A model generated the notes under the pieces. It was not told the DNA's origin. It did not search any database and was given only the letters and a program-made list of their open reading frames with translations. The position numbers and the translations under genes were made by a program. DNA of 36,359 nt from Nitrospirota bacterium (GTDB taxonomy: Bacteria > CG2-30-53-67 > CG2-30-70-394): the NCBI GenBank assembly GCA_050050395.1, contig JASFUG010000002.1, positions 1-36,359 of the forward strand, in the 5' to 3' direction. Of this stretch, positions 1 through 22,654 are shown piece after piece; positions within the stretch are counted from its first letter, which is position 1; each line of letters begins with the position of its first letter.

Positions 1-432
1 TGGGATCTGGATGGCGAAGGTGGAAATCCACCCCACCTCCGTTCCGGTGCGGATCGCATCGGGATCCATCCAGGTTCGGTAGCCGTCGATCTTCGGCGGA
101 CCGCTTTCGGGAGCAGCGCCATAGAGGTTCGCGACCTCGGCCGCATCGCGGGTCTTGCGCACCTCATACTGCTCCACCAGCCAACCGACGCCGTAGCCGA
201 CCGCGCCGCCGACCGCCGCGCCCGCCGCCGCGGCCTTCAAATCGCCACCGGCCACCGCGCCGATCCCCGCACCGACCACGGCACCCATAGCGGCACCCGC
301 ACGCCGATTGTCCGCCGTGACATCGGACTTCGTCGCGCATGAGACGGGCAGCAGCAGCAGCAGCAGCAGCGAGGAGAACAGCGCTACGAACCGCGCTCCG
401 TATCTGTCGAGAGTGGGCATCATCGTCGTCAT
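1..432 (-). CDS. Glycine-zipper lipoprotein (partial; C-terminus runs off the window start)
   Basis: Absent from the supplied ORF track because there is no stop codon inside the window. I checked every triplet: the minus frame is open from the ATG at 432..430 down to nt 1 (144 codons). Translation is MTTMMPTLDRYGARFVALFSSLLLLLLLPVSC-ATKSD.., a signal peptide ending in a lipobox-like Cys. It continues GAAMGAVVGAGIGAVAGG...GAAVGGAVGYGVGW, a glycine-zipper motif. It lies 76 nt downstream of the HEAT gene stop on the same strand. Confidence 0.55.
   Translation of the reverse strand, partial: MTTMMPTLDRYGARFVALFSSLLLLLLLPVSCATKSDVTADNRRAGAAMGAVVGAGIGAVAGGDLKAAAAGAAVGGAVGYGVGWLVEQYEVRKTRDAAEVANLYGAAPESGPPKIDGYRTWMDPDAIRTGTEVGWISTFAIQIP
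349..369. repeat. Trinucleotide repeat: (CAG)7 on plus, (CTG)7 on minus
   Basis: Seven perfect CAG units read directly from the sequence. They encode the Leu7 run in the h-region of the lipoprotein signal peptide. Confidence 0.9.
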
Positions 433-508
433 GGCGTGCCGTGCCGCACTTTCGCACGGGGAATTTCGTGGTGGATTGCACATCCGGAGCGGTGCGGCGC
501 TGGACAAG

Positions 509-1447
509 CTATCTGAGGGCGGCCCGTGCCTGATCGAGCTCCGCCTGGGTGTAACGCTTCACGACCTCCACCTTGAACGGGAACGGATGATCGAGCAGCT
601 CATCTAGCGAGTTCACCGCCACGTCGCAGACCCGGATCCAGAACGGTCCGTGCGACGGACCGACGTTCTTCGCGTCCCGCAGGTCTTCGAGCAATGGAAC
701 GATCTCCTGCGCCAACGTGCGATCGTTCAAATAGGGCAGATCCTCCAGGGCCGCGACGCGTAGGGGCGGGTCATTCTGGATGAGTCGGTCCAGATACGCC
801 TGTCGATGCTCTGCGTCGCCCAGCCGGGCGAGGGCGAGCGACATCGCGTGCTTCGCATCCGGGTACCCCTCGCGGGCAAACTGTATGCGAAGCGGTTCGA
901 TTGCCGCCTTGTCACCCAGAGTACCGAGCGCGAGTGCAACCTGCTCTCGGACGTAGTCGTCGTCGTGATGCTGGAGCCGCTCCACGAGGGCCGGCACATC
1001 CGCGCCCGTACAGTGGTGGCGTACGCTCCGGGCGGCGATGCCCCGAACCATCTGGTTTTCGTCGTCGAGCGCCCGGAAGAGGCTCGCCTTGACCTCCGAT
1101 CCGCCCATGCGGTCGAGGAGCGAAACGGCCAGCTCACGGACTTCTGGATCGGCGTGTTCCAGCATCCCGATGACCTCGCTCGCCTGTTCCGATGATGGCG
1201 GGCGTTCCAGCAAGTCCCAGTCCTTGGCTTCGATCTGGTGAGCGATGGCGTGCGTATTCATGGGGTTGCCTTTCTCATGGCCTGCAACCGCGGCACCGGA
1301 TGCCGCCGCCTCCACCGGCGCGTCGCTGCCCACGGCCGGGCTTCCACAAAGGACCACCCCCACGACCAGCGGGGTCACGCCGACGGCCAGGGCGAAACGC
1401 GATCCGCGGCCATGGGTTCTGAGAGGTACGACGTGCGGCCATGACAT
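509..1447 (-). CDS. HEAT-repeat (PBS-lyase-like) protein with N-terminal signal peptide; candidate periplasmic immunity protein
   Basis: Part of ORF 509..1720. I chose the internal ATG at 1447 (cat at 1445-1447), which gives MSWPHVVPLRTHGRGSRFALAVGVTPLVVGVVLCGSPAVG.., a signal-peptide-like N-terminus. The longer upstream extension is Arg-rich junk that overlaps the preceding gene. The body has repeated D..VR..AA.aLg..G motifs (PEVRELAVSLLDRMG, ENQMVRGIAARSV, DYVREQVALALGTLGD, PPLRVAALEDL). The start codon is uncertain; an alternative is MNTHAIAH.., which has no signal peptide. Confidence 0.7.
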   Translation of the reverse strand: MSWPHVVPLRTHGRGSRFALAVGVTPLVVGVVLCGSPAVGSDAPVEAAASGAAVAGHEKGNPMNTHAIAHQIEAKDWDLLERPPSSEQASEVIGMLEHADPEVRELAVSLLDRMGGSEVKASLFRALDDENQMVRGIAARSVRHHCTGADVPALVERLQHHDDDYVREQVALALGTLGDKAAIEPLRIQFAREGYPDAKHAMSLALARLGDAEHRQAYLDRLIQNDPPLRVAALEDLPYLNDRTLAQEIVPLLEDLRDAKNVGPSHGPFWIRVCDVAVNSLDELLDHPFPFKVEVVKRYTQAELDQARAALR

Positions 1448-1461
1448 TGCACATGTTCCCG

Positions 1462-2595
1462 TCAATACGGATTCAACGATCGCCGCCGCGCACGACCGGC
1501 TTCGCCGTCGGTACCACTGACCGCAGCCGGCATGTCTTTGACGGTGATCTTTGCGCCTCGCGTCGTTGCCCCGTAGCCGACGTTGTCGCGGTGGGCGATC
1601 CCGGTCGCGGTGTACGGGCTGGGAGACCACATCAGCCGTCGGCGAGCCCACATATCCTGGTGCGCGGCGCCCGGAGCGACTGCATCTTGCCCATGTCCCG
1701 GATTGTCCAAGTAGTGGCACAGCTCGTGCGCCACGGAGTTATCCGTGGCGTTATCGGCGCTCACGATGCCGTAGCCGTTGGGTCTGGCGTTGGTGTTGTC
1801 GAATGTCAGTCCGAAGACCTCGTTCGCCGCGTGGACGAAGTAAACATTGATGTGATTCGCCCTCGGACGCGCGTTGATGATCGTCGAGAACTCCCGCCAG
1901 TCCTGTGGGGAATTCGTGTGCCCGGGGTCCGAGGCGCTCATCGTGGTGGTCATCTGGCCAGCCACGGCGAACGGCGTGACCCCGTCCCTCAGCACGTTGA
2001 GATTCTCGGATCGCGTCTGTGCGGCATTGTAGATGAACTCGATGCCCAGCGGTCGCCAGATGATGTTGATGTTCCGGAACGTCGCGACGAGTGATGCTGC
2101 AGTGCGAGCCGTGGCGACACCTCGGATCGTCACCAGGTGCGCGGTGACTCGAAGACGGCGCAGCTGGAAGATATGCGGCTCCAGCTCGCCGAGCACGGGC
2201 CCGGTCGTGCTACCCAGACGGACCTGGATCGACACCGGCCTGTTCGCATAGTCACGCACGCCCTTGATGCTGAAGATCCCGTCGTTCGGGATCGGGCCGC
2301 CTCCCGCAGGGGCGACGACCTCGGCACATTGCGTATCCGTACTGGTCGCGAAGAGTGGTGCCGCGGCGTCGATGTCCTCGCGTAGCACCTTGACCCGGAC
2401 CGTATCGCCCTCGGTGATGCTGACCATGGCGCCACGCGCCGGGGAGTTCCCCCAGGTCCCGGGCCGCGCGCCCATGGCGAAGCCCCGGTCATCCACCTCG
2501 GGCGCGTCGATCACGGGCGGCCCCGTCACCGCCCGCGTAAACCGCAAAGGGCAGATGATCTGGCGGTCGTGCCGGACCTTCACCTTGACGGCCAT
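1462..2595 (-). CDS. HExxH zincin-like (metzincin-like) metallopeptidase, no signal peptide; candidate T6SS cargo effector
   Basis: 377-aa ORF with ATG at 2595, preceded by GAGGGAG about 8 nt upstream. HELCH is at aa 290-294 (nt 1714..1728; revcomp reads cacgagctgtgccac). Another His follows in HELCHYLDNPGH, and a possible Met-turn (RRRLMWSP) lies about 25 aa further on. The N-terminal half is beta-rich. It is the fourth gene after vgrG in a tightly spaced operon. Confidence 0.75.
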   Translation of the reverse strand: MAVKVKVRHDRQIICPLRFTRAVTGPPVIDAPEVDDRGFAMGARPGTWGNSPARGAMVSITEGDTVRVKVLREDIDAAAPLFATSTDTQCAEVVAPAGGGPIPNDGIFSIKGVRDYANRPVSIQVRLGSTTGPVLGELEPHIFQLRRLRVTAHLVTIRGVATARTAASLVATFRNINIIWRPLGIEFIYNAAQTRSENLNVLRDGVTPFAVAGQMTTTMSASDPGHTNSPQDWREFSTIINARPRANHINVYFVHAANEVFGLTFDNTNARPNGYGIVSADNATDNSVAHELCHYLDNPGHGQDAVAPGAAHQDMWARRRLMWSPSPYTATGIAHRDNVGYGATTRGAKITVKDMPAAVSGTDGEAGRARRRSLNPY

Positions 2596-2621
2596 TGTCT
2601 AAGCTCCCTCTCGCACCCAAC

Positions 2622-3140
2622 CTACGCGCCGGCGCGGTTCGTCATCTGATTCTGTACGGCGGCGTTGATCACCGCATCGTTGTAGAGCGACTCGTCGGTC
2701 TGAAAATCCAACACGGAGCGTTCGAACTCCATGACGTCGGGTGTGTTGTCGACGCCGTTGCCGTCGGGACCGCCGTGCCCGATCTGGTAACCCAACAGAC
2801 GCAATCGCTGTTTCTGCCCGCGTAGATCGGCCACCGGCGCCAGCGCGGCCGCCGAAAAACGCACCTCGTACTCGGCGACGCGATTCCCGCCGTGTAACAG
2901 CTCGAGGGTCGAGACGCCTCCGCGAATGGGCATGTTAATTCGCCCATCGTTTCCCGTGACGCCTCTCTGGATCACGAATCCCTGTGCACGGACCTGATAG
3001 TGGAGCCCCGCGACGGTCCGGTCTCCGCCGTTGTCGTTTCCCGGAGACCGTTGGAAGAAGATGTCCACCGTGCGGACGTTGAGCACGTTGTGAAGCACCG
3101 AGTTCGCAACCTGCCGTGCGATGGTTTCGAGGTCGCTCAT
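2622..3140 (-). CDS. Small beta-sandwich plus putative peptidoglycan-binding (PG_binding_1-like) domain protein
   Basis: 172-aa ORF whose ATG at 3140 overlaps the upstream stop (ATGA). The C-terminal part (LRGQKQRLRLLGYQIG...VDNTPDVMEFERSVLDFQTDESL) resembles the three-helix PG-binding repeat. The middle contains QRGVTGNDGRINMPI, a TxxDGxI beta-sandwich signature. Confidence 0.7.
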   Translation of the reverse strand: MSDLETIARQVANSVLHNVLNVRTVDIFFQRSPGNDNGGDRTVAGLHYQVRAQGFVIQRGVTGNDGRINMPIRGGVSTLELLHGGNRVAEYEVRFSAAALAPVADLRGQKQRLRLLGYQIGHGGPDGNGVDNTPDVMEFERSVLDFQTDESLYNDAVINAAVQNQMTNRAGA

Positions 3141-3751
3141 TGTCCAAACGCCTCCTTGAGCTTGTTCTTCGTGGGCTCGTCCAGTTGACCTGTGGGTTCG
3201 AGGCCTTCCGCTTCCTGAAACTCGCGCAGGAGGTCGCCAAGCTCGAGGCTGTCATCGTAACCCAGGCCTCGCAATCGCCCACGAACCCCCGTCTCGGTGT
3301 CTACTGGATCCAAGGTGCCGAGTCGAAGCGGATAAATCTCCTCGACATCGCCGTCGGTGATCGTCAGCTCACCCTGCTGCGCACCAGGAGGGATCGGCAC
3401 CTCAATCCTGCCATCGCCGTCCGTCGTGCCTTCTGTAGTCGTGCCATCGACCGTCAACACGAACCGCACGTTCGCGCGCGGCTCATCGTCTCGTTTGATC
3501 TGTAAACGCAACATCGCCGGCACACCCTTGCGCCGGAAGCGGTGACGCTGTTCGGAGCCGCCGGTCTCCTCCTTGCCACGCTTATCCGGGACGATAACGA
3601 CGTCGCCGGGGGCGAGGACGCTTGCATCACCGCGCTTCTCCTTCAGCTTGGCGTTGGCGGGGTCATCCCAGATCGTACCTGGGAACAGGCCATATTTCGC
3701 TGCGATGCTGGAGAGGCACTCGCCCTGTTTGACCTTATGCTCCGTGGCCAT
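3137..3751 (-). CDS. LysM domain plus beta-sandwich plus PG_binding_1-like domain protein
   Basis: The ORF track starts at GTG 3766. I prefer ATG at 3751..3749, which overlaps the vgrG stop as TGATG. The N-terminus HKVKQGECLSSIAAKYGLFPGTIWDDPANAKL...LAPGDVVIVP is LysM-like. The centre contains EGTTDGDGRIEVPIPPG. The C-terminus VRGRLRGLGYDDS...LLREFQEAEGLEPTGQLDEPTKNKL is PG-binding-like. Confidence 0.8.
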   Translation of the reverse strand: MATEHKVKQGECLSSIAAKYGLFPGTIWDDPANAKLKEKRGDASVLAPGDVVIVPDKRGKEETGGSEQRHRFRRKGVPAMLRLQIKRDDEPRANVRFVLTVDGTTTEGTTDGDGRIEVPIPPGAQQGELTITDGDVEEIYPLRLGTLDPVDTETGVRGRLRGLGYDDSLELGDLLREFQEAEGLEPTGQLDEPTKNKLKEAFGQ

Positions 3752-6069
3752 CACGCCTTCTCCCACGCTTCCTTGTCGAGGTCGGGGAAGGTGATCTTGC
3801 AGTTGGCGCCCTTCTCCACGCCGGTGACCTTGAGCACGCCGTCGGGACCGGTGCGGCCCGTGTAGACCTTGCCGTCGGGCATCGTCACCATGACCTTCTC
3901 CCCGGCCACCGGCTGATCGGCCTCGTCAATCAGCTCGACCTCGAGCCACGACTTCTCCTCCTCGTCCTCGGCGGCATCCTTGTGGGTCGGGGCGTCGAGG
4001 GCCTTGGCCACGATGGGGTCCATCTCCGTCTTCTGCTTGCTGTAGGTCAGGCCCTTGCCGGTGACCACCGTCGCGGCGACGGCGGCCTCCAGCGGTGCGG
4101 CCGCCGCGACCGCCTTGCCCATCTTGCCGGAGCCGGCGGAGCCGCCGCTGTTGAGCTTGAGCATCGGGCCACTGATGGTGACGCCACTGGAGTCGACCTT
4201 GAGGAACGACCCACCCACCTTGATGGTCAGCTCCTTCATCCCCTCGATGACCAGGCCCATGGCCTTAATGAAGAGGTCGCTGCCCACCTCCTGGCTGTAG
4301 TTCTTCTTGTACGCCTCGATGACGTCGCCCTTGACGGTGAGCGAACGGCTCTCGCCGATCTCGATGGACTGCTTCTTGGCCACCTTCAACGACTGGTCCC
4401 GGGAGATCTCGGTGACCTGATCGCGCGCCACCATGGAGTGCTCGTCGCGCTCCACCTTCTGGACCTTGTCGCGCGCCACCACGAGATGGCGGTCGTTGCC
4501 GATGTGCTCCCGGCGATCGTTCTTGACCCGGAGGTCGAGGTCCTTCTCGGCGTGGAGCAGGAGCTGCTCGTCGCCCTTCTTGTCCTCGAAGGAGATCTCG
4601 TTGGAGCCGCCACCGCCCTTCGAGCTGTCGGTCTTGATCACGCTGCGGGTCTTGTTGTCCGGCAGCTTGTAGGGCGGCACCTGGTCGGCGTTGTAGACGC
4701 TGCCGGTGATCAGGGGGCGATCCGGGTCGCCCTCCTCGAAGGCCACCACGACCTCCTGCCCGACCCGCGGCAGGAACAGGCAGCCGTAGCCGCTGCCGGC
4801 ATGGGCCTGGGCGACGCGCACCCAGCACGACGCCTTGTCGTCGTTGATCCCCGCCCGGTCCCAGTGGAACTGCACCTTGACCCGGCCGTGCTCGTCGGTG
4901 TGGATCTCCTCGCCAGAGGGCCCGACCACCCGTGCCGTCTGGGTCCCGGGGATCATCGGCCGCGGCGTCACCCGCTGCGGGCGAAAGGACAGGCTCGCCG
5001 GGATGCATTCGATATCGTTCTCGTAGATCTGCTGGCCGCCCTCGGTACCTGTCGCCTCCGCTCCGACCGCCTGCGGCTGAAAGCCGTAGTGCTGCACGGC
5101 GGTGATCAGGTAGGACTGGTTGAAGCTCGACCGCTCGTGGCCATCGAGGGTGAACTTGTAGCCACTCACCAGCCGCCGGCAGTCGCTGTGGGCGGTCATC
5201 ACGTCGGCCGGCACGGCGCCCTCTTCCCTGCGCCGTTTGGCAAGCTCGGTACCAACGTCCTTTTCCCGGTAGCCACCGGGATAATCGAAAACCTGGAGCT
5301 CCTTCCACTTGTCACCGTCGGCGCTCGCCGTCAGATCAAGGGAGGGCTTGGTGAAGTTGTAGTCGCGGAGCTGGCTTGCGCCGGATCGGATCTCCTGCGT
5401 CACCTGGCACGCCTGGATGAACTCCTCGGTGGTGGTCCCAAATCCCTCGTCGTTGAGCAGCACGGTGGTCGGCTTGACGATATCGGTGTGGGCGTCCGGG
5501 CTATCACCGAACACAGCCACGTGGCCGGTTTCCTTGTGCTCGAAGAAGTAGCAGATCCCTTCCTCCTCGAGGAGGTAGGCGATGAAGTCCATGTCGCTCT
5601 GCCGGTACTGGACGCAGTACTCGCGTGGCTTGTAGGTCCCCTTCAATGAGAAGCGATAGCTATCGCTGGGGACCTGGGCCTCCTCAAGCACCGCCTTGAC
5701 GATGTCCGGCACCGACTTCTCCTGGAAGATGCGGAAGTTCTGGCGCTGAGTCAGGAGCCAGAGCGCCGGTACCAGGGTCGCGCGGTAGCGGGTGTAGTCG
5801 GTGCCCCGGCCGGCCTGCTCAAAACGCGACACGATGCCGCTCACGTGACGCGGCTCGGGGTTGCCCTGGATGGTGAGCAGGGCCGCCTCGCCCAACACCT
5901 TGGCGAAATCGATCTCGCCGTCGGTGCTGGCGAGGTCCAGGGTGAACTGGAAGAGTTGCGAGATCCCCTCCGTGCCGTTGAACTGCACGACCTTCAGGAC
6001 AGTGTCATCCAGAGCTCCGACCCGAAAGGTCAGGTCGGCCTCGGCTGCGCGATTGCGTATGACGGCCAT
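3751..6069 (-). CDS. vgrG: T6SS spike protein VgrG (TssI) with a roughly 70-aa C-terminal beta-sandwich (TTR-like) extension
   Basis: 772 aa. The N-terminus ...LKVVQFNGTEGISQLFQFTLDLAS... and the gp27/gp5-like core (GRVKVQFHWDR, RVAQAHAGSGYGCLFLPRVGQEVVVAFEEGDPDRPLITGSVYN) are classic VgrG. GAGGAG lies upstream of ATG 6069. The C-terminal tail contains MPDGKVYTGRTGPDGVLKVTGV. Confidence 0.95.
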   Translation of the reverse strand: MAVIRNRAAEADLTFRVGALDDTVLKVVQFNGTEGISQLFQFTLDLASTDGEIDFAKVLGEAALLTIQGNPEPRHVSGIVSRFEQAGRGTDYTRYRATLVPALWLLTQRQNFRIFQEKSVPDIVKAVLEEAQVPSDSYRFSLKGTYKPREYCVQYRQSDMDFIAYLLEEEGICYFFEHKETGHVAVFGDSPDAHTDIVKPTTVLLNDEGFGTTTEEFIQACQVTQEIRSGASQLRDYNFTKPSLDLTASADGDKWKELQVFDYPGGYREKDVGTELAKRRREEGAVPADVMTAHSDCRRLVSGYKFTLDGHERSSFNQSYLITAVQHYGFQPQAVGAEATGTEGGQQIYENDIECIPASLSFRPQRVTPRPMIPGTQTARVVGPSGEEIHTDEHGRVKVQFHWDRAGINDDKASCWVRVAQAHAGSGYGCLFLPRVGQEVVVAFEEGDPDRPLITGSVYNADQVPPYKLPDNKTRSVIKTDSSKGGGGSNEISFEDKKGDEQLLLHAEKDLDLRVKNDRREHIGNDRHLVVARDKVQKVERDEHSMVARDQVTEISRDQSLKVAKKQSIEIGESRSLTVKGDVIEAYKKNYSQEVGSDLFIKAMGLVIEGMKELTIKVGGSFLKVDSSGVTISGPMLKLNSGGSAGSGKMGKAVAAAAPLEAAVAATVVTGKGLTYSKQKTEMDPIVAKALDAPTHKDAAEDEEEKSWLEVELIDEADQPVAGEKVMVTMPDGKVYTGRTGPDGVLKVTGVEKGANCKITFPDLDKEAWEKA

Positions 6070-6088
6070 GGTCTCCTCGGGTTACTCG

Positions 6089-6481
6089 CTATAAGGCCGG
6101 GCGCGATGGACTGGCCATCATCGTGTGCACCGGCACGTCCACTCTCACGACCTCACTGACGACGTGCTGATCGTCAAAACGCAGCAGCAGCGCCCGCTCC
6201 AGCCCCGCGGCGACGAGGCCGTGGCGCAGCCCCGATTCTTCGACGAGCCCGCGGCAAACTCGCACCAGGATCGATCCGTGACAGACGATCGTGGCCCTCA
6301 CGGGACCCGTGCCGCGGATACCGGCAGCGCGCCGACAGGAGATGAGACGCTCCTCGCAAAGGATCATCAGCGCGTCGCGATACACCGCCTCGGGCCAGCC
6401 CGCACCCAACAACCGATGCACCTCGTGAGCGAGCTGCAAGATCTCGCGCGTCCTTTGATCGGTGGGGGAAGTCTCGGTCAC
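6089..6481 (-). CDS. GxxExxY-family (PD-(D/E)XK-like) small protein, apparently degenerate or relic
   Basis: Inside ORF 6089..6679. The translation ...REILQLAHEVHRLLGAGWPEAVYRDALMILCEER... contains the literal G-W-P-E-A-V-Y (GxxExxY) signature in its usual context. The region where the family normally has a D...ExK core reads ILVRVCRG and is shorter than usual. I chose GTG at 6481 because a sigma54 promoter sits inside the longer ORF. This could be a non-functional remnant within the vgrG leader. Confidence 0.4.
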   Translation of the reverse strand: MTETSPTDQRTREILQLAHEVHRLLGAGWPEAVYRDALMILCEERLISCRRAAGIRGTGPVRATIVCHGSILVRVCRGLVEESGLRHGLVAAGLERALLLRFDDQHVVSEVVRVDVPVHTMMASPSRPAL

Positions 6482-6528
6482 AGCAATCGCCTCGATCGGG
6501 TGTGGCAAAGAGTGCTCACCCCGCCAAA

Positions 6529-6544
6529 AGCAATGGCCGTGCCA
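6529..6544 (-). promoter_or_regulatory. Sigma54 (-24/-12) promoter for the GxxExxY-vgrG-cargo operon
   Basis: The minus strand reads TGGCAC-GGCCA-TTGCT, a match to the TGGCAC-N5-TTGCW consensus at every specified position. It lies about 48 nt upstream of GTG 6481 and about 460 nt upstream of the vgrG ATG. Confidence 0.6.
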
Positions 6545-6631
6545 CCCTGCCGTCAAAGGCAAAGCCGTGTAACGACAAGCACCTCCGCGCTGGACGCCGT
6601 GCGGTCGCCACGACACGGCTCCTTCGCACTT

Positions 6632-6642
6632 CTCCGGAATCC
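6632..6642 (-). promoter_or_regulatory. Candidate upstream activator site (GGATTCCGGAG on minus; core palindrome CCGGA-A-TCCGG at 6634..6644)
   Basis: An identical 11-mer recurs at 13560..13570. In both places it lies about 87-95 nt upstream of a sigma54 -24 element. Confidence 0.3.
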
Positions 6643-6684
6643 GGAACGCCGCTCCGGTTTGGCAATCCGCCAACCTCACCCCAC

Positions 6685-9381
6685 CTACTCCACTTCGCCG
6701 AACGTCATGGCGAACTCTCCTGCCTCAGTCAGCTCCAGGTCCAGGCGACTCGGGAGGGGGCCGGCGCTCATGCGCTGCAACAGCTCGGTGGAGATCTGCG
6801 GCAGCAGCGTGCCTTGCAGGATGTGGTCGATGTTGCGTGCCCCGGTCTCCACCTCGGTACAGCGCGCGGCGATCTGCTCCACCACGGCGTCCGAGTAGTG
6901 GAAGGCCATGCGGTGGCTGTCGTGCAGGCGGCGCACCACCTTCTTCATCTTCAGGCGCACGATGTCACCGAGGACGTCGGGACCCAGGGGGTAGAACGGA
7001 ACGATCATCATCCGCGCGAGCAGCGCCGGCTTGAAGTGGGCGGAGAGGATCGGGCGGATGGCAGTGGCCAGCTCCTCGGGAGTGGGCCGCTCGCCGTCGG
7101 TGCATAGGGCCATGATCTCGTCGGTGGCCAGGTTGCTGGTAAGGAAGATGCAGGTGTTCTTGAAGTCGATCTCGCGCCCTTCCCCGTCGCTCAGGGTCCC
7201 CTTGTCGAAGACCTGGTAGAAGAGGTTCAGAACCTCCGGGTCTGCCTTTTCCACCTCGTCCAGCAGCACCACCGAGTACGGCCGCTGGCGGACCGCCTCG
7301 GTGAGAACGCCGCCCTCGCCGTAGCCGACGTAGCCGGGTGGTGAGCCGATCAGCTTGCTCACCGTGTGCTTCTCCTGGAACTCGCTCATGGCAATGCTGG
7401 TCATGAACTGCTCACCGCCGAATAACAGGTCGGCGACGCCGAGGGCGCACTCGGTCTTGCCCACGCCGGAGGTGCCGACGAACAGGAAGATCCCTATCGG
7501 CTTGCTGGGGTCCTGTACCCCGGCCTTGGCCGCCTTGATCCCCTGGGCGACCGCGGCCACCGCCTGATCCTGCCCTTTGATGCGCTCCTTGAGGCGGCGG
7601 TCGAAGTCGAGCACCGCCGTCGCCTCGTCCTTCACCATGTTGCCCACCGGTACCCCGGTCCAGTCGGCGACCACCTGGGAGACCGTCTCCCCCGTCACCT
7701 CGGTGGGGATCATGGGTGCCTCTCCCTGGATTTCCTTCAGGGCCGCCGCGGCGGCGGCGAGCTCGGCGCGCAGATCCTCCAGGGAGACGGCTTCGGCCGG
7801 GGTCGCCCCCGCCGCCTCGGTCCCGACTTCGCCCTCGGCAACGTCCGGGGTCTTGCCGGCCTCCGCCAGGCTCACCCGCTTGCGAAGATCGAGCAGGCGG
7901 GAGACCGCCTCCTTCTCCTTGAGCCACCGCTCGCGCAGGGCGTCGTGCTTCTCCTGCGCCTCCTCAAGGAGCCCAGTCAGCTCTTGGAGACGCTCACGGT
8001 CCACCTCAAAGCCACTCTCCGCGTCACGCTGCAGGGCCACCTGCTCGCGAGTCAGAGTCTGCACGCGCCGCTCCAGGTCCTCCAGGCTGCCGGGCTTGCT
8101 GGTGATGGCGATCTTCACCCGCGCGGCCGCCGTGTCGAGTAGGTCGACTCCCTTGTCCGGGTGCTGGCGGCCACTGATGTAGCGGCTGCCGAGGGAGGCA
8201 CAGGCGGCCACCGCCGAATCGGCGATGTGCACGCCGTGGGCCTGCTCGTAGCGCTCGCGCAGGCCGCGCAGCATGCCGGTCGCCCCGTCCGCGTCGGGCT
8301 CGTCGACCTTCACCGGCTGGAAGCGCCGAGCGAGGGCCGGGTCCTTCTCGAAGTACTTCTTGTACTCCGACCAGGTCGTCGCCGCGACGGTACGCAGCTC
8401 TCCCCGGGCGAGGGCCGGCTTGAGCAGGTTGGCCGCGTCACCGCCCCCGGCAGCACCGCCGGCGCCGATCAGGGTGTGGGCCTCGTCGATGAACAGGACA
8501 ATCGGCTTGGGGGACGATTTCACCTCGTCGATCACCCCCTTGAGGCGGTTCTCGAACTCTCCCTTCACGCTGGCACCGGCCTGGAGGAGCCCCATGTCGA
8601 GGCCGAGGAGATCGACTCCCTGGAGGATCTCCGGCACATCGTCCTCGATGATGCGCAGGGCAAGCCCTTCCACCAGGGCGGTCTTCCCGACGCCCGCCTC
8701 GCCGACGATGATCGGGTTGTTCTTGCGGCGCCGGCCGAGGATGTCGACCATCTGACGGATCTCCCGGTCGCGACCGAAGATCGGATCGATCCGCCCGGCG
8801 CGCGCCTCGGCGGTGAAGTCGATGGTGAAGCGGCCCAGGGCGGTGTCACCACGGGGCCCGGGCGCGCCTTCCGGTGCTGCGGCGGCGCGACCCGGCTCCC
8901 GTACGTCCTCCACCGAGCCGGAGACGATGGTCAGCAGGTTACGACGTAGCTCGTCCTTGCCGACCTTCTCCAGCAGGTCGAGGTAGGGGCCGTTACCGAA
9001 GCGGCGTGGGTTGGAGGCCAGGCAGGAAAAGAGGACGCCGGAGCGCACCTCGGCGAGACCCAGCTCCACCGAGCCCACCAGCCACGCCTCCTGGATCCAC
9101 TCCATGAGGGTAGGTGAAAAGACCGGCCGGCCGGTGTTGCCTGTCTTGAGGTCCTCGACCGTCTCCTGCACGGCACGCAGGAAGTCGGCCGCATCGATGT
9201 CGAAGTGCGACAGGATCTGCACCACGTCGCCATCGGCGTCCTCGGCGATCCTGAGCAGCACGTGCTCGACGGTCACCTCGTAATGACCCCGTGCCACGCA
9301 CAGGCCGGCGGCCCCCTCCATCGCCTTGGTGGTCCTGGTGTTGAGCCGCTGGAGCAACGGCTTCAGATCGACACTGATCAT
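6685..9381 (-). CDS. clpV: T6SS AAA+ ATPase ClpV (TssH)
   Basis: 898 aa with a Clp N-domain and two AAA modules carrying Walker A motifs GEAGVGKTA and [15 protein letters not shown] lies upstream of ATG 9381. Confidence 0.95.
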
Positions 9382-9642: not shown

Positions 9643-10662
9643 TTACGCCACGCCGGCGAGACAGACCACCGGATCTTCGGCGCAGGTACCGAGCCATGTG
9701 GTCCATCCGAGGCGCGGCGCGGGGTCGGCGGCACCTAGACGCAAGGGCGGCACCTCCGCGCGGTGGAGCTGCACGTGGACGTCGCAGGCGAGAGGGTCGC
9801 GGAGGTAATAGTGAACCAGGGCGAGGCCGGCACGCAGTGCCTGGCCGCCGGGGAGCAGCGCCTCGAACAGGGTGAACGACACCGGTCCGATACGGACAGC
9901 GAACTTTCCGGCGCGATCGAAGACACGGCGGCCGGCGACCGCCGTCTCTCCGAGACGGGCGGTCGCACCGCCGAGGCGGGCCAGCTGCTCCGGCGCGATC
10001 GTCACCCAGCGCGCGACGCACTCCTCGACGAGCACCGCGACGCCTCCGAGCTCGTCGCTCAGCAGGCACTCCAGACCGCGCGCCGAGTGGCTCTCGCTGC
10101 CCAGTAGCCCGGCGTAGTGCAGGAGATGGACCGGATCCATCCCCACCGCTGCGCCGCATCCCTCCGTGGCCACGCCCACGAGGCCGAGCAACAGGGGAGA
10201 CAGATCGTCATTTCCCCCGGTGCGAAAACGCAGGGCGTACCGATACTTCAGCCACGCTCGATAGAGGAGCGACAGCAGGCGGTGGTGGAAGAGATCGAGG
10301 AACTCCCGGCGCGTGGATTCGTCGTTCTGCCACAGCACCGCCTCGGTGAAGTACGCGGGAAGCGGCGAGTCCGCCCCATAGAGGCCGAGGAACGAGGTGG
10401 TGAGCTGCATCCGTGGACCACTCGCGGCCCGGCCGCTGTCGATCTCGTGGATCTCCACCACATCGCTGGCGGGAAAGGCACAGTTCGCGGCCGGACGGAG
10501 GCGAATCGCCTCACGCTGCGCCGGTCCCGCGCCTCCGATCGGCGCGGCGTCGGGACGTGCGGCCTCCAGCAGCCGTACGGCCTGAAAGAACGGAAAACGC
10601 CGCGCCTCCGCCAGCAGGCGGCGCATCACAGGAGCGTCTGTCGTCCGAGGCGTGCCGGCCAT
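9643..10662 (-). CDS. tssG: T6SS baseplate protein TssG
   Basis: 339 aa. The N-terminus ...RRFPFFQAVRLLEA... and overall length are typical of TssG (ImpH/VasB). It overlaps the end of tssF by 37 nt. Confidence 0.9.
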   Translation of the reverse strand: MAGTPRTTDAPVMRRLLAEARRFPFFQAVRLLEAARPDAAPIGGAGPAQREAIRLRPAANCAFPASDVVEIHEIDSGRAASGPRMQLTTSFLGLYGADSPLPAYFTEAVLWQNDESTRREFLDLFHHRLLSLLYRAWLKYRYALRFRTGGNDDLSPLLLGLVGVATEGCGAAVGMDPVHLLHYAGLLGSESHSARGLECLLSDELGGVAVLVEECVARWVTIAPEQLARLGGATARLGETAVAGRRVFDRAGKFAVRIGPVSFTLFEALLPGGQALRAGLALVHYYLRDPLACDVHVQLHRAEVPPLRLGAADPAPRLGWTTWLGTCAEDPVVCLAGVA

Positions 10663-12386
10663 CGGTAGACCTCCCCTTGCCGCACCCCACGGACCGTGAG
10701 GCGGGTGAAGGCGTTGATGGTGGAGAGAGTGGCGAACAGCTCATTCAATACGGTGCCGAACAGCACCATATCCCCCTCGCCGGTGAAGCTCTCCTCGTCG
10801 AGCTCCACCGACACGTCGCTGCCGCGCACCGGCGCACCACGGAACAGCAGGTCGGCCGAGGTGACGTGCACGGCGCGGATGCCATCCAGGCGGAGCTGGT
10901 TTGCCGCCGCAGCCTGGCGGTCGACTCGCGCCTGGAAATTGTACAGGGAGAGGATTCCGCGCAGGACGTCGGCGCTCATCATCGGCAGGCGGCTCAAGGC
11001 GAGGTGCGAGATCAGGCGCCAGTGCAACCCCTCGCCCAGGGGCGGTGGCACGGCCCCGGTGACCCGCGTGATGTTCGTGAACGTCGCGTACTCGGGAGAG
11101 GTGCTGGTCGCCACGTTTATGTCGCCCACCCCGAGGCTCGACGGCAGGCGGCGATTGGTGCAGGTCATCTCGATCCCGACGGTCTCGGTGGGCGGCATGG
11201 CCGCTTCCCCGCTGCGGGAGACGAACGTGATGTAGGTCTCGGTCCCCTGGCCAACCACCGAGTCGACGAGTCGGGTGTGATAGAAAAGCGCGTCGCGCTC
11301 GCGCGCCGCCATCTCGTGGGAGAAGGCGTAGAACGGTTCGTAGCGGCGCTCCTGACTGGTCCCGACTTCCCAGCCCAGGACCCGCTCGATGGCGTAGATC
11401 TCGTAGTGCGCCGGGTCCTTGCCCTCGGGGCGGATCCGGTATGCGGTCCGGTCGTGCTCGACGCGCAGGGGGTCGGAGCGGTGCGGGAAGAGGTTCACCA
11501 CCGGCGTGCAGAACAGGCGCAGGTTGTCGGCGGTCACCCGCGGCATCTCCCCCGCGGGGCGCCGGTACGGCAGGCGCAGGACCCATTCCTCTGCCTCGCT
11601 GAGCTCACTGGTGGCAAGGTCCGTCAGCTCGACGGCGAGAAACTTCGCCGCCAGGGCGAAGTATTCCTGCACCAGGCGATAGCCGGGGAAGGCGTTGGCC
11701 GGGTACGGCAGGACCGTCTCTTCGTCGCCGAAGCCGCACGGGCGCACCGCCAGCGCCGGCAGGTCGCGGCGCTCCGTCGCCCTGCCTCCGACCCGCGCTT
11801 CCACGGTGAGCCCCGTCGCGAGGCGCGTGAACAGGAGATAGAGGCCGTACATCTGCCGCGGCTCGCCGTGCAGGAGAAACCGCAGGCGCTGCACATCCAG
11901 GCCGGCGAGGCTTACCCCTTCCAGGGGGCGGAGGGTCAAGACCAGTCGCGGACTCTCGCCCGCCGGCTCCTCGATCCGCGCCTCGCTGAGCTGAATCGGC
12001 CACATCTCCACGGCCGCCGTGGTGCGAAACCGGCACGGAGTGCCGTCCACCGGCACCGAGTGGATCTCGATGCCGCGGTCCACCACCTGGCGGTCGCGCA
12101 GGGCCGCCGGCCGCGGCTGGAACTCGACCACGGACATCGCGGGAATCGGCCGCAGGTAGTGTGGCCACAGCAGCCCCATCAGAGTGTGGGTGATCTCCGG
12201 CAGCTCGTCATCGAGCTTCTGCCGGATCCGCCCCGTGAGGAAGGCGAACCCCTCCAGGAGGCGCTCCACGTCCGGATCGGTGCCGTGGGACGCGAGCATG
12301 TGCGCCACCTGGGGGTGGGCGGCGGCGAACTCCTCACCCATCTCCCGCAGGAAGGCGAGCTCGTCCTGGTAGTACTTGTTGAACAT
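10626..12386 (-). CDS. tssF: T6SS baseplate protein TssF
   Basis: 586 aa. The N-terminus MFNKYYQDELAFLREMGEEFAAAHPQVAHMLA is the canonical TssF (ImpG/VasA) start. Confidence 0.95.
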   Translation of the reverse strand: MFNKYYQDELAFLREMGEEFAAAHPQVAHMLASHGTDPDVERLLEGFAFLTGRIRQKLDDELPEITHTLMGLLWPHYLRPIPAMSVVEFQPRPAALRDRQVVDRGIEIHSVPVDGTPCRFRTTAAVEMWPIQLSEARIEEPAGESPRLVLTLRPLEGVSLAGLDVQRLRFLLHGEPRQMYGLYLLFTRLATGLTVEARVGGRATERRDLPALAVRPCGFGDEETVLPYPANAFPGYRLVQEYFALAAKFLAVELTDLATSELSEAEEWVLRLPYRRPAGEMPRVTADNLRLFCTPVVNLFPHRSDPLRVEHDRTAYRIRPEGKDPAHYEIYAIERVLGWEVGTSQERRYEPFYAFSHEMAARERDALFYHTRLVDSVVGQGTETYITFVSRSGEAAMPPTETVGIEMTCTNRRLPSSLGVGDINVATSTSPEYATFTNITRVTGAVPPPLGEGLHWRLISHLALSRLPMMSADVLRGILSLYNFQARVDRQAAAANQLRLDGIRAVHVTSADLLFRGAPVRGSDVSVELDEESFTGEGDMVLFGTVLNELFATLSTINAFTRLTVRGVRQGEVYRWPARLGRQTLL

Positions 12387-12387: not shown

Positions 12388-12410
12388 ATTTTTTCGCGAC
12401 GCGAAAAAAT
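12388..12410. promoter_or_regulatory. Perfect 23-nt AT-rich palindrome filling the tssE-tssF spacer
   Basis: The sequence is attttttcgcg-a-cgcgaaaaaat, with 11-nt arms and one central nt. Its last nt is the first base of the tssE stop codon complement (tta at 12410-12412). It ends 1 nt from the tssF ATG (12386). No Shine-Dalgarno sequence is visible for tssF. Confidence 0.6.
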
Positions 12411-12826
12411 TATCCCTTCACACTGATGCGGCCAGAGGGCGAGATGGTGGTCTCGAACCAGACGGCGGCCTGCTCGTCGGCGGTGACCAGCTCGCCGGTG
12501 ATCTCGAAGCGCAGGCGGAAGAAGTCGTCAGGGTCCTCCACCGGGTTTACTCGTACCCGGCGTAGGCGTGGCTCGTAGCGCTCGATCGAATGGCGGATCG
12601 CCCGCTGCATCCGCCCTACGGCCTCCGGAAAGCTGTGCACCATGTCGGTGAAGTCGGGGATGCCGTAGTCGTCCAGGGTCAGACAATTGCCCTGGCGGGT
12701 GTTGAGCATGCGCTGCAGGTGGGCGAGGACAGACTCCGCCAGGTCCTCGGTAGACTCCTCCACCCGCCGCGGCGCATTGGGCCGCGGGTCATCGAGACGG
12801 TCGAGGAGGCTCCGTTCCCGCGCCAT
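12410..12826 (-). CDS. tssE: T6SS baseplate protein TssE (gp25-like)
   Basis: 138 aa. SLLDRLDD...ESVLAHLQRMLNTRQG...YGIPDFTD... is a typical GPW/gp25 family pattern. Confidence 0.85.
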   Translation of the reverse strand: MARERSLLDRLDDPRPNAPRRVEESTEDLAESVLAHLQRMLNTRQGNCLTLDDYGIPDFTDMVHSFPEAVGRMQRAIRHSIERYEPRLRRVRVNPVEDPDDFFRLRFEITGELVTADEQAAVWFETTISPSGRISVKG

Positions 12827-12886: not shown

Positions 12887-13372
12887 CTACTTCGGTGCGA
12901 TCCAGCTATCGGACGCTGAAACGCCGTCGACCTCCCACGTCCACTCGATCTCCTTGTAGGTGCAAGAGACCTCCTCCATGTGGCCGTACTGCTCGGTCTG
13001 GGTGTCGAGGGCGTTGGGCATGAAGGGGCGTATGTTAACGATGATCGCGTCCTTCAGGGTGGTGGTGAAGTAGTGCTCCTCCTGGCCCGTGGGGTCGATG
13101 CGGTACCACTTGAGCACCACCTCCTTCATGTGCTCGCCGGTGCACAGGGCCTGGTAGAGCAGGGGGCTCGCCTTGTCCTGGAACTTGACGATGGTGAACG
13201 GCTCGTGGATTCGCTTGCCCTGGGCGAGGCCGGTCTGGGGATCACGCGGGATCCGCACCTGGTGGTTGAAGGCCTCGACGAGAATCGTGTCTTCGCGACC
13301 GGCCATGTCGCAGGAGCCGGCGATCTCTCCCTGATTCTCACCTGTGAACGTGATGTGGCATGGCATTGGCAT
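12887..13372 (-). CDS. hcp: T6SS tube protein Hcp (TssD)
   Basis: 161 aa. MPMPCHITFTGENQGEI.GSC...EAFNHQVRIPRDPQTG...HEPFTIVK..DKASPLLYQAL is a typical Hcp1 family pattern. GGAGGA lies upstream of the ATG. Confidence 0.95.
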   Translation of the reverse strand: MPMPCHITFTGENQGEIAGSCDMAGREDTILVEAFNHQVRIPRDPQTGLAQGKRIHEPFTIVKFQDKASPLLYQALCTGEHMKEVVLKWYRIDPTGQEEHYFTTTLKDAIIVNIRPFMPNALDTQTEQYGHMEEVSCTYKEIEWTWEVDGVSASDSWIAPK

Positions 13373-13602: not shown

Positions 13603-15087
13603 CTACTTGTCGAGCTTGCCCACCAGCGACAGGGTGAAGAACGCCCCCATGTACTTGAAGTGGGGCCGCACCTTCATGTCGACCTTGTACCAGCCGGGAT
13701 CGCCCTCCACGTCGGAGACGATGATCTGCGCCTGGCGCAGGGGGCGCCGGCCGCGGGTACGCGGGTCGACCACGTCCTGGTCGGAGACGTATTGCCGGAT
13801 CCAGGTATTGAGCTCCTTTTCCAGGTCGCCGCGCTCCTTGAACGAGCCGAGCTGCTCCCGCTGCAGCACCTTGATGTAGTGCGCGAGGCGGTTCGTGATC
13901 ATGGTGTACGGGAGCTGGGTGCCGAGCTTGTAGTTCGCCTCCGCCTCCTTGCCCTCCTTGCTGGTGCCGAAGAACTTCGCCTTCTGGCAGGAGTTGGCGG
14001 AGAAGAAGCAGGCGTTATCGCTGCCCTTGCGCATGGCGAGGGCGATGAAGCCCTCTTCGGCCAGCTCGAACTCGCGGCGCTCGGAGATCAGCACCTCGGT
14101 GGGGATCTTGGTCTGGATCTCCCCCATCGCCTCGTACTGGTGGAGGGGCAGGTCGTCCACCGTGCCGCCGCTCTGCGGGCCGATGATGTTGGGGCACCAG
14201 CGGTACTTGGCGAAGCTGTCCGCGAGGCGGGTGGCGAACGCGAAGGAGGCATTGCCCCAGAGATAGTTCTTGTGGTCGTCGGTGACCGTCTCGTTGTAGG
14301 TGAAGGCCTTGACCGGGTTGTTCTCCTCGTCGTACGGCAGGCGCAGGAGGAAGCGCGGCAGGGTGAGGGCCATGTAGCGCGCGTCCTCCGACTCCCGGAA
14401 ACTGTTCCACTTGGCGTACTGCGGCCCCTCGAAGATCGCGTGCAGGTCCTTCAGGTTAGGCATCTTGAGGAAGTCGTCCTCACCGAAGAACTTGGGCCCC
14501 GCCGAGGCGATAAATGGCGTATGGGCCATGGCCCCCACTGCCGAGACGTTCTGCATCAGGGCGATGTCCGGAGACGAAGCACTGAACTCGTAGTTGGCGA
14601 CCATCGCCCCGAACGGCTCGCCACCGAACTGGCCGTACTCGGCGGTATAGACCTGCTTGTAGAGCCCGGACTTGGTAATCTCCGGCGCGTCCTCGAAGTC
14701 CGCCAGGAGGTCGTCCTTGGAGACGTTGAGGATCTGCATCTTGATGTTCTCGCGAAAGTTGGTGCGGTCGATCGCGAACTTCAGGCCGCGCCAGGCGCTC
14801 TCCAGCTTCTGCACGTCGGAGTGGTGGAGGATCGCATCCACCTGCGAGGAGAGCTTCTTGTCGATCTCCGCGATCATCTCGTTGACCACTGACTGATGGA
14901 CCTTCTCCCCGGCGTGCGCCGGGGTCACCAGCTCCTCGATAAACTTGCTCACCCCCTGCTTGGCAAGGGTGTATCCCTCGTCCGCGGGCGAGAGCTTGGT
15001 CTCGCTGAGGATTTGATCGAGCAGGCTGCCTTCCGCCTCTTCTGCCGCCGCGGGTGCGGCTGCGGCTTCTTTTTGTTCTTCCGCCAT
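13603..15087 (-). CDS. tssC: T6SS contractile sheath large subunit TssC (VipB)
   Basis: 494 aa with family-typical sequence throughout (…AEYGQFGGEPFGAMV.NYEF…, C-terminus FTLSLVGKLDK). AAGGAG lies upstream of ATG 15087. Confidence 0.95.
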   Translation of the reverse strand: MAEEQKEAAAAPAAAEEAEGSLLDQILSETKLSPADEGYTLAKQGVSKFIEELVTPAHAGEKVHQSVVNEMIAEIDKKLSSQVDAILHHSDVQKLESAWRGLKFAIDRTNFRENIKMQILNVSKDDLLADFEDAPEITKSGLYKQVYTAEYGQFGGEPFGAMVANYEFSASSPDIALMQNVSAVGAMAHTPFIASAGPKFFGEDDFLKMPNLKDLHAIFEGPQYAKWNSFRESEDARYMALTLPRFLLRLPYDEENNPVKAFTYNETVTDDHKNYLWGNASFAFATRLADSFAKYRWCPNIIGPQSGGTVDDLPLHQYEAMGEIQTKIPTEVLISERREFELAEEGFIALAMRKGSDNACFFSANSCQKAKFFGTSKEGKEAEANYKLGTQLPYTMITNRLAHYIKVLQREQLGSFKERGDLEKELNTWIRQYVSDQDVVDPRTRGRRPLRQAQIIVSDVEGDPGWYKVDMKVRPHFKYMGAFFTLSLVGKLDK

Positions 15088-15156: not shown

Positions 15157-15660
15157 CTACGCCTTCTCCCCCCCCTCCCCCGACGGTCCCAGCTCCTTGA
15201 GGAGCTCGGCGCGCTTGGTCTCGTCGGCGAGGATACTTTCGATCTTCTTGCGGAACGCCGGCAGGTTGCCGAGTGGACCCTTCAACGCGGTGAGGGCGTT
15301 GCGCAGCTGCAGGAGCTGGTCGAGCTCCGGCACCTGACGTGCGACGCTCTCCGGGTTGAAGTCCGCCAGGGTGTCGAACTTGAGGTGCACCGCCAACTGG
15401 TCGCCCGCGACGCCGGAAAGACGATCTTCGACATTCGCGTCGAGCTCCAACTTCTGGCTGCGCATCACGTCGTTGAAATTGTCCTTGTCGACCTGGATCG
15501 CCTTGCGCTCCTCGAGGGGCGTGTCGTCGGCGCGCAGGGTGTAGTCGCCGAGCATCATGAACTTGAGGGGCAGCTCCACCTCCTCCTGGGCACCGCCGGT
15601 GGCCGGCTTGTAGGTGATGTTGACCCGCTCCTTGGGAGCGACCGAGCCTTCTTTTGCCAT
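15157..15660 (-). CDS. tssB: T6SS contractile sheath small subunit TssB (VipA)
   Basis: 167 aa. MAKEGSVAPKERVNITYKPATGGAQEEVELPLKFMMLGDYT is the canonical TssB N-terminus. AAGGAG lies upstream. Confidence 0.95.
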   Translation of the reverse strand: MAKEGSVAPKERVNITYKPATGGAQEEVELPLKFMMLGDYTLRADDTPLEERKAIQVDKDNFNDVMRSQKLELDANVEDRLSGVAGDQLAVHLKFDTLADFNPESVARQVPELDQLLQLRNALTALKGPLGNLPAFRKKIESILADETKRAELLKELGPSGEGGEKA

Positions 15661-22482: not shown

Positions 22483-22556
22483 TACTGACTCACTCTCCGG
22501 GTGGACACGATGTCCCCGAAACGACAGACGACCCCATGCGGGCGATGCCAATCCGC

Positions 22557-22588
22557 GTAGGGGTGTGCCGAGCGAAGCGAGGCACACC
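22557..22588 (+). repeat. REP-like hairpin element (GTAGGG + 8-bp stem + 11-nt loop)
   Basis: The sequence is gtaggGGTGTGCCgagcgaagcgaGGCACACC, in the 224-nt tssK-tssL spacer. Confidence 0.5.
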
Positions 22589-22621
22589 GATTCCTGCGGT
22601 GCCATGCCATAGCTCCGGGGC

Positions 22622-22654
22622 GGTGGGCCGCGCTGCGCTTGGCGCACCCTACGG
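22622..22654 (-). repeat. REP-like hairpin element, inverted orientation relative to 22557..22588
   Basis: The plus strand reads GGTGGGCCgcgctgcgcttGGCGCACCctacgg. The revcomp begins ccgtagggtgcgcc. It has the same architecture as the copy at 31542..31574. Confidence 0.5.

Follow-up and report, generated by a model that had tools for sequence, protein, structure and literature searches.

A conserved four-gene cassette behind vgrG in a Nitrospirota genome with a predicted split metzincin effector and an exported HEAT-repeat partner

The DNA analysed here, called the window throughout, is a stretch of 36,359 nucleotides (nt) from a Nitrospirota bacterium (contig JASFUG010000002.1 of assembly GCA_050050395.1). 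It contains a type VI secretion system (T6SS) cluster, and this text concerns the five genes, named G1 to G5, that follow its spike gene, vgrG. All six genes are read from the minus strand; their products, with lengths in amino acids (aa), are listed below.

3751-6069, minus strand: VgrG spike, 772 aa, matching TIGR03361 (E=1e-193) and Phage_GPD (7.5e-94), with gp27/gp5 domains
3137-3751, minus strand: G1, 204 aa, with LysM, an Ig-like beta-sandwich, and PG_binding_1
2622-3140, minus strand: G2, 172 aa, with a beta-sandwich and a divergent PG_binding_1
1462-2595, minus strand: G3, 377 aa, with an N-terminal beta-sandwich and an adamalysin/reprolysin-like metzincin domain
509-1447, minus strand: G4, 312 aa, an exported HEAT-repeat protein
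1-432, minus strand: G5, a glycine-zipper lipoprotein of 244 aa, of which the first 144 are present before the window edge truncates it

The genes are closely spaced. As read from the sequence, the vgrG stop and the G1 start meet in the junction TGATG (1-nt overlap), and the G1 stop and the G2 start in ATGA (4-nt overlap), with AAGGAGG about 14 nt upstream. The gaps that follow measure 26 nt (G2-G3), 14 nt (G3-G4), and 76 nt (G4-G5). A terminator/promoter scan of positions 1-6800 found no terminator-like site in the G1-G5 junctions, and the number of sites was not above that in shuffled sequence. A first-pass annotation of this DNA, made from the letters and a list of open reading frames (ORFs), had described five genes after vgrG, and all of its coordinates, overlaps, and gaps were reproduced when the ORFs and junctions were re-read. 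It had also proposed the five genes as one candidate cargo effector and immunity unit aimed at the cell envelope. The VgrG-linked effector and immunity part of that proposal is kept here; the conserved unit, with G5 left out, comprises four genes.

The extent of the unit was defined in a locus scan limited to one genome per species, in which 31 loci with a G3 relative were collected (cited by L numbers) and then compared with the window proteins by tblastn. About 29 of the 31 hold G1-G2-G3-G4 in the same order. The cassette is present in at least six phyla (Gemmatimonadota, Planctomycetota, Acidobacteriota, Methylomirabilota, Zixibacteria, and Desulfobacterota), and the 31 loci with a G3 relative belong to the Gemmatimonadales (the nearest, with 89% identity), Phycisphaerae, Pirellulales, Bryobacterales, Terriglobia, Methylomirabilota, Zixibacteria, Desulfobacterales, Thermodesulfobacteriota, and Chitinispirillaceae. 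VgrG is encoded directly upstream of G1 in at least 9/31 loci (L008, L013, L017, L020, L022, L026, L028, L030, and L031), the spacing being often just a few nucleotides, in several phyla, and T6SS genes are found within 10 kb in about 15/31. Two cassettes stand in tandem in L020, while in L025 vgrG heads a series of three consecutive cassettes, each led by a G1 copy, that ends with G1-G2-G3-G4. The predicted effector and immunity genes recur, across genomes, next to vgrG, PAAR, or T6SS genes. G1, G2, and G3 have no hydrophobic N-terminus, hence no Sec/Tat signal peptide or membrane anchor was seen, and the adjacent G4 is exported (signal peptides and their absence were judged by inspection of the N-termini, here and below). 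Most likely, G1-G4 is a self-contained T6SS cargo cassette.

G5 does not belong to it. The protein has a Gly-zipper_Omp match above the cut-off and a lipobox-like end (...LLPVSC), and no homologue of it was found by tblastn in the 31 G3 loci; the cassette of the closest relative likewise has no G5. In a longer public copy of the window's contig (L036), the complete G5 (244 aa) shares 8 nt with the gene behind it, as against the 76-nt gap that separates it from G4. Because it is absent from the related loci and coupled to the gene behind it, G5 is taken as the first gene of the next unit. Its candidacy as a second immunity gene of the cassette was rejected on the same grounds, and the membership in the module that the first-pass annotation had given it is withdrawn.

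The genes that follow G5 in the longer contig (L036:6905-13011) encode a 210-aa prealbumin/CarboxypepD_reg-like protein and a protein of 992 aa in which OmpA and PG_binding_1 are combined with an HExxH at the C-terminus, for which a weak Peptidase_M10 match was obtained. Next to them are a weakly HEAT-like protein of 276 aa and a protein of 298 aa. No significant similarity was found between G3 and the 992-aa HExxH protein, or between G4 and the 276-aa HEAT-like protein. Judged by their domain content, the genes after G4 in L036 look like a second metallopeptidase cassette, analogous to the first and not homologous to it.

The predicted toxin of the cassette is G3. It consists of a beta-sandwich (residues 1-157) and an alpha/beta catalytic domain (residues 158-377), which contains HELCH at positions 290-294, a further histidine, H301, and a conserved RRLM. 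No Pfam or NCBIfam family was assigned to it at E<=0.1, and its full-length homologues are all annotated as 'hypothetical'. The family, as collected in an exhaustive HMMER search, comprises 191 clusters at 50% identity (E<=1e-30), and the residues H290, E291, H294, and H301 are invariant across 111 homologues. Compared with the sequences of the Protein Data Bank (PDB), the family profile matches the snake-venom M12B proteinases (trimerelysin II, E=3.8e-8), ulilysin, and ADAMTS. The AlphaFold2 (AF2) model of G3 has a predicted local distance difference test score (pLDDT) of 94 and a predicted template modelling score (pTM) of 0.92. When this model was submitted to Foldseek, the catalytic domain matched snake-venom metalloproteinases (SVMPs) with a probability of ~1.0 and a template modelling score of ~0.5 (normalised by target length), and PAPP-A with 0.98; the N-terminal sandwich gave generic p53- or Ig-like folds only. 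Sub-threshold matches to Reprolysin_3/4/5 are present in some relatives, G3 itself being under every Pfam threshold. The Pfam models for Tox-MPTase1-5, PVC-metallopeptidase, and HopH1/NleD did not match G3 at E<=0.1; the toxin metallopeptidases so named are, in the published description, small zincins of the Wss1-like kind borne on RHS stalks, unlike G3 (PMC3482391).

These searches are remote-homology and structure checks of the kind that the first-pass annotation had suggested, and for G3 they converge on a metzincin fold. The earlier description of G3 as an HExxH zincin without a signal peptide agrees with the invariant HExxH…H and the lack of a hydrophobic N-terminus, and the remark that it belongs to no named T6SS effector family holds as well, with no matching paper found. 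From the family profile and the model, G3 is predicted to be an adamalysin-like metzincin.

The gene behind it encodes a HEAT-repeat protein (HEAT_2, E=1.2e-19) with a hydrophobic N-terminal segment ending ...VVLCGSPAVGS, as expected from the first reading of G4 as a HEAT-repeat protein with a signal peptide. In its homologues an N-terminal signal peptide is present in essentially every lineage, mostly with a lipobox cysteine (upstream in-frame reading). G4 is found directly downstream of G3 in 30/30 loci whose contig extends that far, and it has the two marks of the Imm-HEAT type of immunity protein, namely HEAT repeats and a gene placed immediately after that of the toxin. A toxin made in the cytoplasm whose antidote is exported is the usual hallmark of T6SS effectors that work in the target's periplasm. 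Since export signals are found on G4 and none on G1-G3, G4 is predicted to be the cognate periplasmic immunity protein for G3.

The pairing of G3 and G4 bears on two other functions that could be proposed for the protease. The nearest solved relatives of G3 (SVMPs, PAPP-A, and ulilysin) act on extracellular eukaryotic proteins, as would be expected if the effector were anti-eukaryotic or extracellular, its protease degrading matrix or surface proteins of prey or host, with G4 not serving as immunity protein. This is improbable, as an exported HEAT protein, often a lipoprotein, is strictly paired with the protease in every lineage, a signature of periplasmic self-protection, a bacterial PG_binding_1 domain is carried by the effector itself, and the neighbouring G1-led cassettes hold typical antibacterial cargo. 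The other possible function is that of a processing protease: G3, loaded on the spike, would cleave or release a co-delivered protein, or VgrG, G1, or G2, and would be restrained by G4. Polymorphic toxin and PVC systems are known to include metallopeptidases with a releasing role (PMC3482391), and the N-terminal sandwich of G3 is packed tightly on its catalytic domain in the AF2 model. Such a role is nevertheless very unlikely, because no other candidate toxin is present within the four-gene unit, the orphan cassettes consist of these four genes alone, and an exported inhibitor would be pointless against a protease acting in the cytoplasm of the producer. The preferred reading of G3 and G4 remains that of a periplasmic toxin and its immunity protein.

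G2 itself has no Pfam match. It is a paralogue of residues 108-203 of G1, which cover the sandwich and the helical part (E=3e-7). Its relation to the protease becomes apparent in distant G3 relatives of 480-650 aa, in which the homology to G3 extends from residue ~120-265 onward. In one of these fusions (P0376), residues 7-158 of G2 align in frame at the N-terminal side (E=2.7e-21) and are followed by the G3 part, and the N-terminal parts of the G2::G3 fusions match PG_binding_1 at ~1e-12. A HEAT protein is again encoded downstream of the fused gene (L038 and L039), and upstream of it a PAAR protein is encoded in L039, and sheath genes and a 213-aa gene are located in L038. Given the fusions in other lineages, G2 and G3 would function as one protein, with the effector split in the window; by this comparison G2 is the detached N-terminal peptidoglycan-binding module of the protease. 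Of the two peptidoglycan-binding helpers that the first-pass annotation had recognised in G1 and G2, both do have domains of that type, but they are not equivalent, as G1 heads many cassettes and G2 fuses to G3.

G1 is a LysM gene standing alone between vgrG and the effector genes, overlapping the former by 1 nt and preceding G2 and G3. In its AF2 model (pLDDT 89) the LysM domain, a seven-stranded Ig-like sandwich, and a three-helix bundle are seen. Foldseek identified the middle domain as Ig-like and returned generic Ig-like and LysM matches only; the VgrG-Tle1 complex, considered as a structural match, scored low (probability 0.47) and was given no weight. The family profile matches the peptidoglycan-binding domain of CtpB (8.8e-6) and the LysM of LytE (7e-5) in the PDB, and both LysM and PG_binding_1 are annotated by Pfam (precomputed hits) in the ~130 homologues of G1. 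Among the Pfam and NCBIfam models, those of the DUF4123/Tap, DUF1795/Eag, and DUF2169 adaptors and of MIX/FIX gave no match in G1-G5 at E<=0.1.

Additional copies of G1 in the G3 loci lead unrelated cargo. One cassette contains a Peptidase_C39_2 protein and a PAAR protein, and another an LCAT/DUF676-type lipase and a PAAR protein. A second locus scan with G1, using a query built from 12 sequences, added 76 loci, chiefly from Planctomycetota, Acidobacteriota, Verrucomicrobiota, and Desulfobacterota. The nearest neighbour of a G1 copy that precedes G2-G3 is another such copy in 32/34 cases, a result confounded by taxonomy, so the comparison within genomes at four multi-copy loci (L025, L027, L003, and L016) is the better control; in these the copy preceding G2-G3 is always the closest to the G1 of the window. 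G1 is predicted, from its gene neighbourhoods and domains, to be a general, cargo-matched adaptor or co-effector linking VgrG to the cargo.

Several unannotated proteins without a Pfam family are encoded directly after G1-like genes: 368 aa (L025:7753-8859), 448 aa (L016:12869-14215, minus strand), 834 aa (L003:11933-14437, minus strand), and 663 aa (L027:3875-5866). By their position all four are candidates for as yet undescribed T6SS effectors.

The partner of G1 on the spike is likely the C-terminus of VgrG, where a beta-rich domain of ~70 aa is located (residues ~700-772, window ~3754-3970). A match to the last ~70 residues of the window VgrG occurs within 200 nt upstream in 55/123 copies of G1, the 123 being those with at least 400 nt of upstream sequence, and such a VgrG-type C-terminal domain precedes G1 even at a distance of ~1.5 kb past the VgrG core. 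Among 80 VgrG loci sampled independently, G1 follows 3/12 VgrGs with the C-terminal domain versus 0/68 without it (p ~0.003, our own hypergeometric estimate from the counts). The co-occurrence indicates that the C-terminal domain of VgrG is likely the docking site for G1.

In L039, the PAAR protein encoded before the fused G2::G3 gene (858-1997, 379 aa) has within it two repeats with homology to the final ~70 residues of the window VgrG, which suggests, at the level of sequence homology, that the same docking domain may be employed on either VgrG or PAAR. Several Bryobacterales VgrGs (L118 and L120-L125) have a C-terminal domain like that in the window and no G1 within 3 kb downstream, and orphan G1-G4 cassettes are present in other Bryobacterales genomes; the pattern is consistent with cargo unlinked from vgrG in that order.

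The peptidoglycan-binding-type domains on G1 and G2 had also led to a different suggestion in the first-pass annotation, namely that the proteins bearing them anchor or remodel the producer wall for T6SS assembly and so offset a TssL without a peptidoglycan-binding domain; in the form considered here, the protease would take part as well. The premise is correct insofar as the DotU domain alone was found in TssL, and other T6SS clusters use wall proteins of the TagL, TagN, or TagX type. The suggestion itself is not supported and is the least probable of the alternatives considered. G1, G2, and G3, devoid of a signal peptide or membrane anchor, could not reach the producer wall by Sec; the cassette is also found at places remote from any T6SS structural gene, as an orphan among housekeeping genes, and in tandem or polymorphic arrays, which is cargo-like rather than structural; relatives of G1 precede lipases and C39-like peptidases; G1 is present at only 3/80 sampled VgrG loci; and the cassette is always paired with the exported HEAT protein.

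The preferred reading, of a spike-delivered split protease with its own immunity protein, can be put together as follows. G1, G2, and G3 would be made in the cytoplasm of the producer, where the C-terminal sandwich of VgrG would bind G1, and G1 would recruit G2 and G3. The toxin would be split between G2 (sandwich and peptidoglycan-binding domain) and G3 (sandwich and adamalysin-like zinc protease). The spike would be fired with this cargo into a neighbouring Gram-negative cell, in which the peptidoglycan-binding domain or domains would hold the protease at the sacculus for the cleavage of a periplasmic or cell-wall-associated substrate. Sister cells would be shielded by G4, exported and probably lipid-anchored, which would bind G3 in the periplasm and block it. 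We put the probability of this scheme, from loading and firing to periplasmic proteolysis and protection by G4, at roughly 75%; the binding, secretion, toxicity, compartment of action, and substrate in it are what we infer. At the gene level, the order and coupling, the domains, the conserved unit and its linkage to VgrG, PAAR, and sheath genes, the G2::G3 fusions, and the export signals on G4 are what the sequences show.

Several points weigh against the scheme. Where enough flanking sequence is available, roughly one cassette in three lacks any T6SS gene within 9-10 kb. At least nine such orphans (L002, L004, L005, L007, L010, L011, L012, L014, and L021) are found among housekeeping genes, and the cassette of the closest relative (89% identity) is an orphan too. 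In a scan of genome contigs with a Bryobacterales VgrG, made to see whether the genomes with orphan cassettes own a T6SS, none of their assemblies was among the 80 loci listed of 187. In the G3 of the window, the histidine serving as third zinc ligand is found at +11, one residue beyond its place in the canonical HExxHxxGxxH, and the glycine is replaced (HELCHYLDNPGH); some G3 homologues have the canonical +10 spacing. The conserved RRLM could be the Met-turn, as judged from sequence and not from coordinates. Metzincins usually cleave proteins, not peptidoglycan. G1 alone is marginally under the Pfam cut-offs (LysM 20.5 vs 20.9 bits, PG_binding_1 19.2 vs 23). The isolated C-terminal domain of VgrG has weak Ig-like matches in Pfam (Invasin_D3 0.0015, Big_1, and CarboxypepD_reg), and the C-terminal 173 residues gave chance-level matches only against PDB sequences (best E=1.2); that the domain is transthyretin (TTR)-like is what we infer.

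The orphan cassettes also raise the question of whether the four genes form an envelope-protease operon in its own right that has no more than a tendency to lie close to T6SS loci, as at least nine cassettes without a T6SS gene within ~10 kb, and the orphan state in the closest relative, could be taken to indicate. We consider this highly improbable. VgrG is encoded directly upstream in several phyla, often a few nucleotides away, PAAR or sheath genes adjoin the fused form, and a protease which, like its partners, has no export signal needs a dedicated secretion route. Orphan cargo cassettes are, moreover, usual for T6SS effectors. As for the co-occurrence with vgrG that the first-pass annotation had proposed as a check, it was found where vgrG stands directly upstream (at least 9/31 loci) and fails for the third or so of the adequately flanked cassettes that have no T6SS gene nearby.

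The T6SS-i cluster in the window is, according to domain searches, complete and entirely on the minus strand. Its other genes are:

24608-25912, minus strand: TagH/FHA
24065-24607, minus strand: TssJ
22707-24068, minus strand: TssK
21790-22647, minus strand: TssL, DotU domain only
18188-21913, minus strand: TssM
15733-18468, minus strand: TssA
15157-15660, minus strand: TssB
13603-15087, minus strand: TssC
12887-13372, minus strand: Hcp
12410-12826, minus strand: TssE
10626-12386, minus strand: TssF
9643-10662, minus strand: TssG
6685-9381, minus strand: ClpV

Searches of the 36-kb window with three PAAR queries detected no PAAR gene, the matches being those of the VgrG C-terminal domain only; the gene for the spike tip protein must lie somewhere else or be missing. 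The TssA ORF, when read from the first GTG, has 911 aa and overlaps tssM; ImpA_N begins only at residue 421, so the true start of TssA is probably much later. Positions 16001-17000, within the TssA stretch, have a G+C content of 0.74, the highest of the window. Between clpV and vgrG, a small ORF (6089-6679, minus strand) encodes a PD-(D/E)XK nuclease-like GxxExxY domain (PDDEXK_3, 1.7e-5), for which public annotations give 130-139 aa. In the ~2 kb between tagH and the cyclophilin gene (26077-28234), long ORFs overlap on both strands, one of 681 aa on the minus strand and, on the plus strand, others of 407, 174, and 185 aa; Pfam gave no match for any of them. The cluster is flanked, at 28718-34176, by genes for a cyclophilin peptidyl-prolyl isomerase, an SLT lytic transglycosylase with DUF4124 (29613-30344), and NadA, and by a sigma-54 response regulator and histidine kinase pair (31569-34176). 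The regulator and kinase pair could regulate the T6SS cluster, and the lytic transglycosylase could serve its passage through the wall.

A wider proposition can be offered tentatively, the odds being somewhat against it. G1-type proteins, together with a matching beta-sandwich of ~70 residues at the C-terminus of VgrG or PAAR, might form a distinct and widespread cargo-loading system, and the prevailing T6SS adaptor logic in Planctomycetota, Acidobacteriota, Verrucomicrobiota, Gemmatimonadota, and Desulfobacterota; every subfamily of G1 would go with a particular cargo, and G1 and G2 would be co-injected, their peptidoglycan-binding domains tethering the split metzincin to the target sacculus. 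If this were true, G1 could be a genomic marker for many effectors yet to be described, such as the 368-, 448-, 663-, and 834-aa proteins mentioned above. To our knowledge, almost no T6SS effectors have been studied experimentally in the phyla that host the cassette. Its predicted protease and partner would add a phylogenetically broad metzincin family with HEAT-repeat immunity to the T6SS arsenal. The G2::G3 fusions reveal which proteins would act together, the pairing of G1 with the VgrG C-terminal domain offers a handle for mining further cargo in environmental genomes, and the substrate of a peptidoglycan-tethered periplasmic protease could indicate a new vulnerability of the envelope.

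In the literature, no report was found of a metzincin T6SS effector or of one with HEAT immunity. The architecture of the cassette has a clear precedent. In a 2023 survey of 130,825 vgrG loci, LysM and PG_binding_1 are among six conserved accessory domains, which occur on their own or as fusions with VgrG or the toxin, and a stand-alone LysM protein of Ketobacter is needed for the downstream toxin to bind VgrG (PMC10673891). The gene order in Ketobacter alkanivorans (Kalk_10465 VgrG, Kalk_10460 LysM, Kalk_10455 toxin, and Kalk_10450 immunity) is the same as in the window (PMC10673891). The likeness is one of domain type and gene order: G1 has in addition the Ig-like sandwich and PG_binding_1, the window effector is predicted to be a split metzincin, and the hosts of the cassette are mostly non-proteobacterial. 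In Acinetobacter baumannii, Tae17 uses its N-terminus, made up of an Ig-like and a LysM part, to bind VgrG17 at the TTR-type C-terminus (PMC11796386). G1 resembles it in that it has an Ig-like domain as well as LysM and in being placed after the C-terminal beta-sandwich of VgrG, but the loading domains of Tae17 are fused to the toxin, a lytic transglycosylase with an amidase, whereas in the window they form a separate protein and the cargo is a predicted metalloprotease (PMC11796386).

With the adamalysin/reprolysin (M12B), pappalysin, and ulilysin metzincins, G3 has in common the catalytic fold and the HExxH…H zinc site; in contrast to the M12B type it has a conserved beta-sandwich of its own at the N-terminus and a third histidine shifted by one, and it lacks a signal peptide as well as any disulfide-rich or disintegrin part. 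The VgrG2b of Pseudomonas aeruginosa is reportedly a spike-borne zinc metallopeptidase which acts in the target periplasm from behind a TTR-type domain, and it is said to be countered by an exported immunity protein that is not of the HEAT type. By the same account its protease is a covalent extension of VgrG, whereas G3 is a separate protein. VgrG2b was absent among the 60 listed of 71 PDB matches of the G3 profile (E<=10) and among the 50 listed Foldseek matches. In polymorphic toxin systems, HEAT-repeat proteins (Imm-HEAT) are encoded beside toxins as their immunity partners (PMC3482391). The toxins they accompany there are of the Ntox34 or restriction-endonuclease type, and that work describes neither a metzincin as their partner nor their export to the periplasm (PMC3482391). 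Since published LysM and PG_binding_1 genes in vgrG loci mediate the binding of the effector to VgrG, the architecture as such is already known. No description was found of the present metzincin family in the role of T6SS cargo, of the HEAT protein as its immunity partner, of the split or fused G2, or of how broadly G1 is paired with the VgrG C-terminus beyond the Proteobacteria. G1-G4 is a new predicted effector-immunity family in a known kind of system, that is, an extension and not a new principle.

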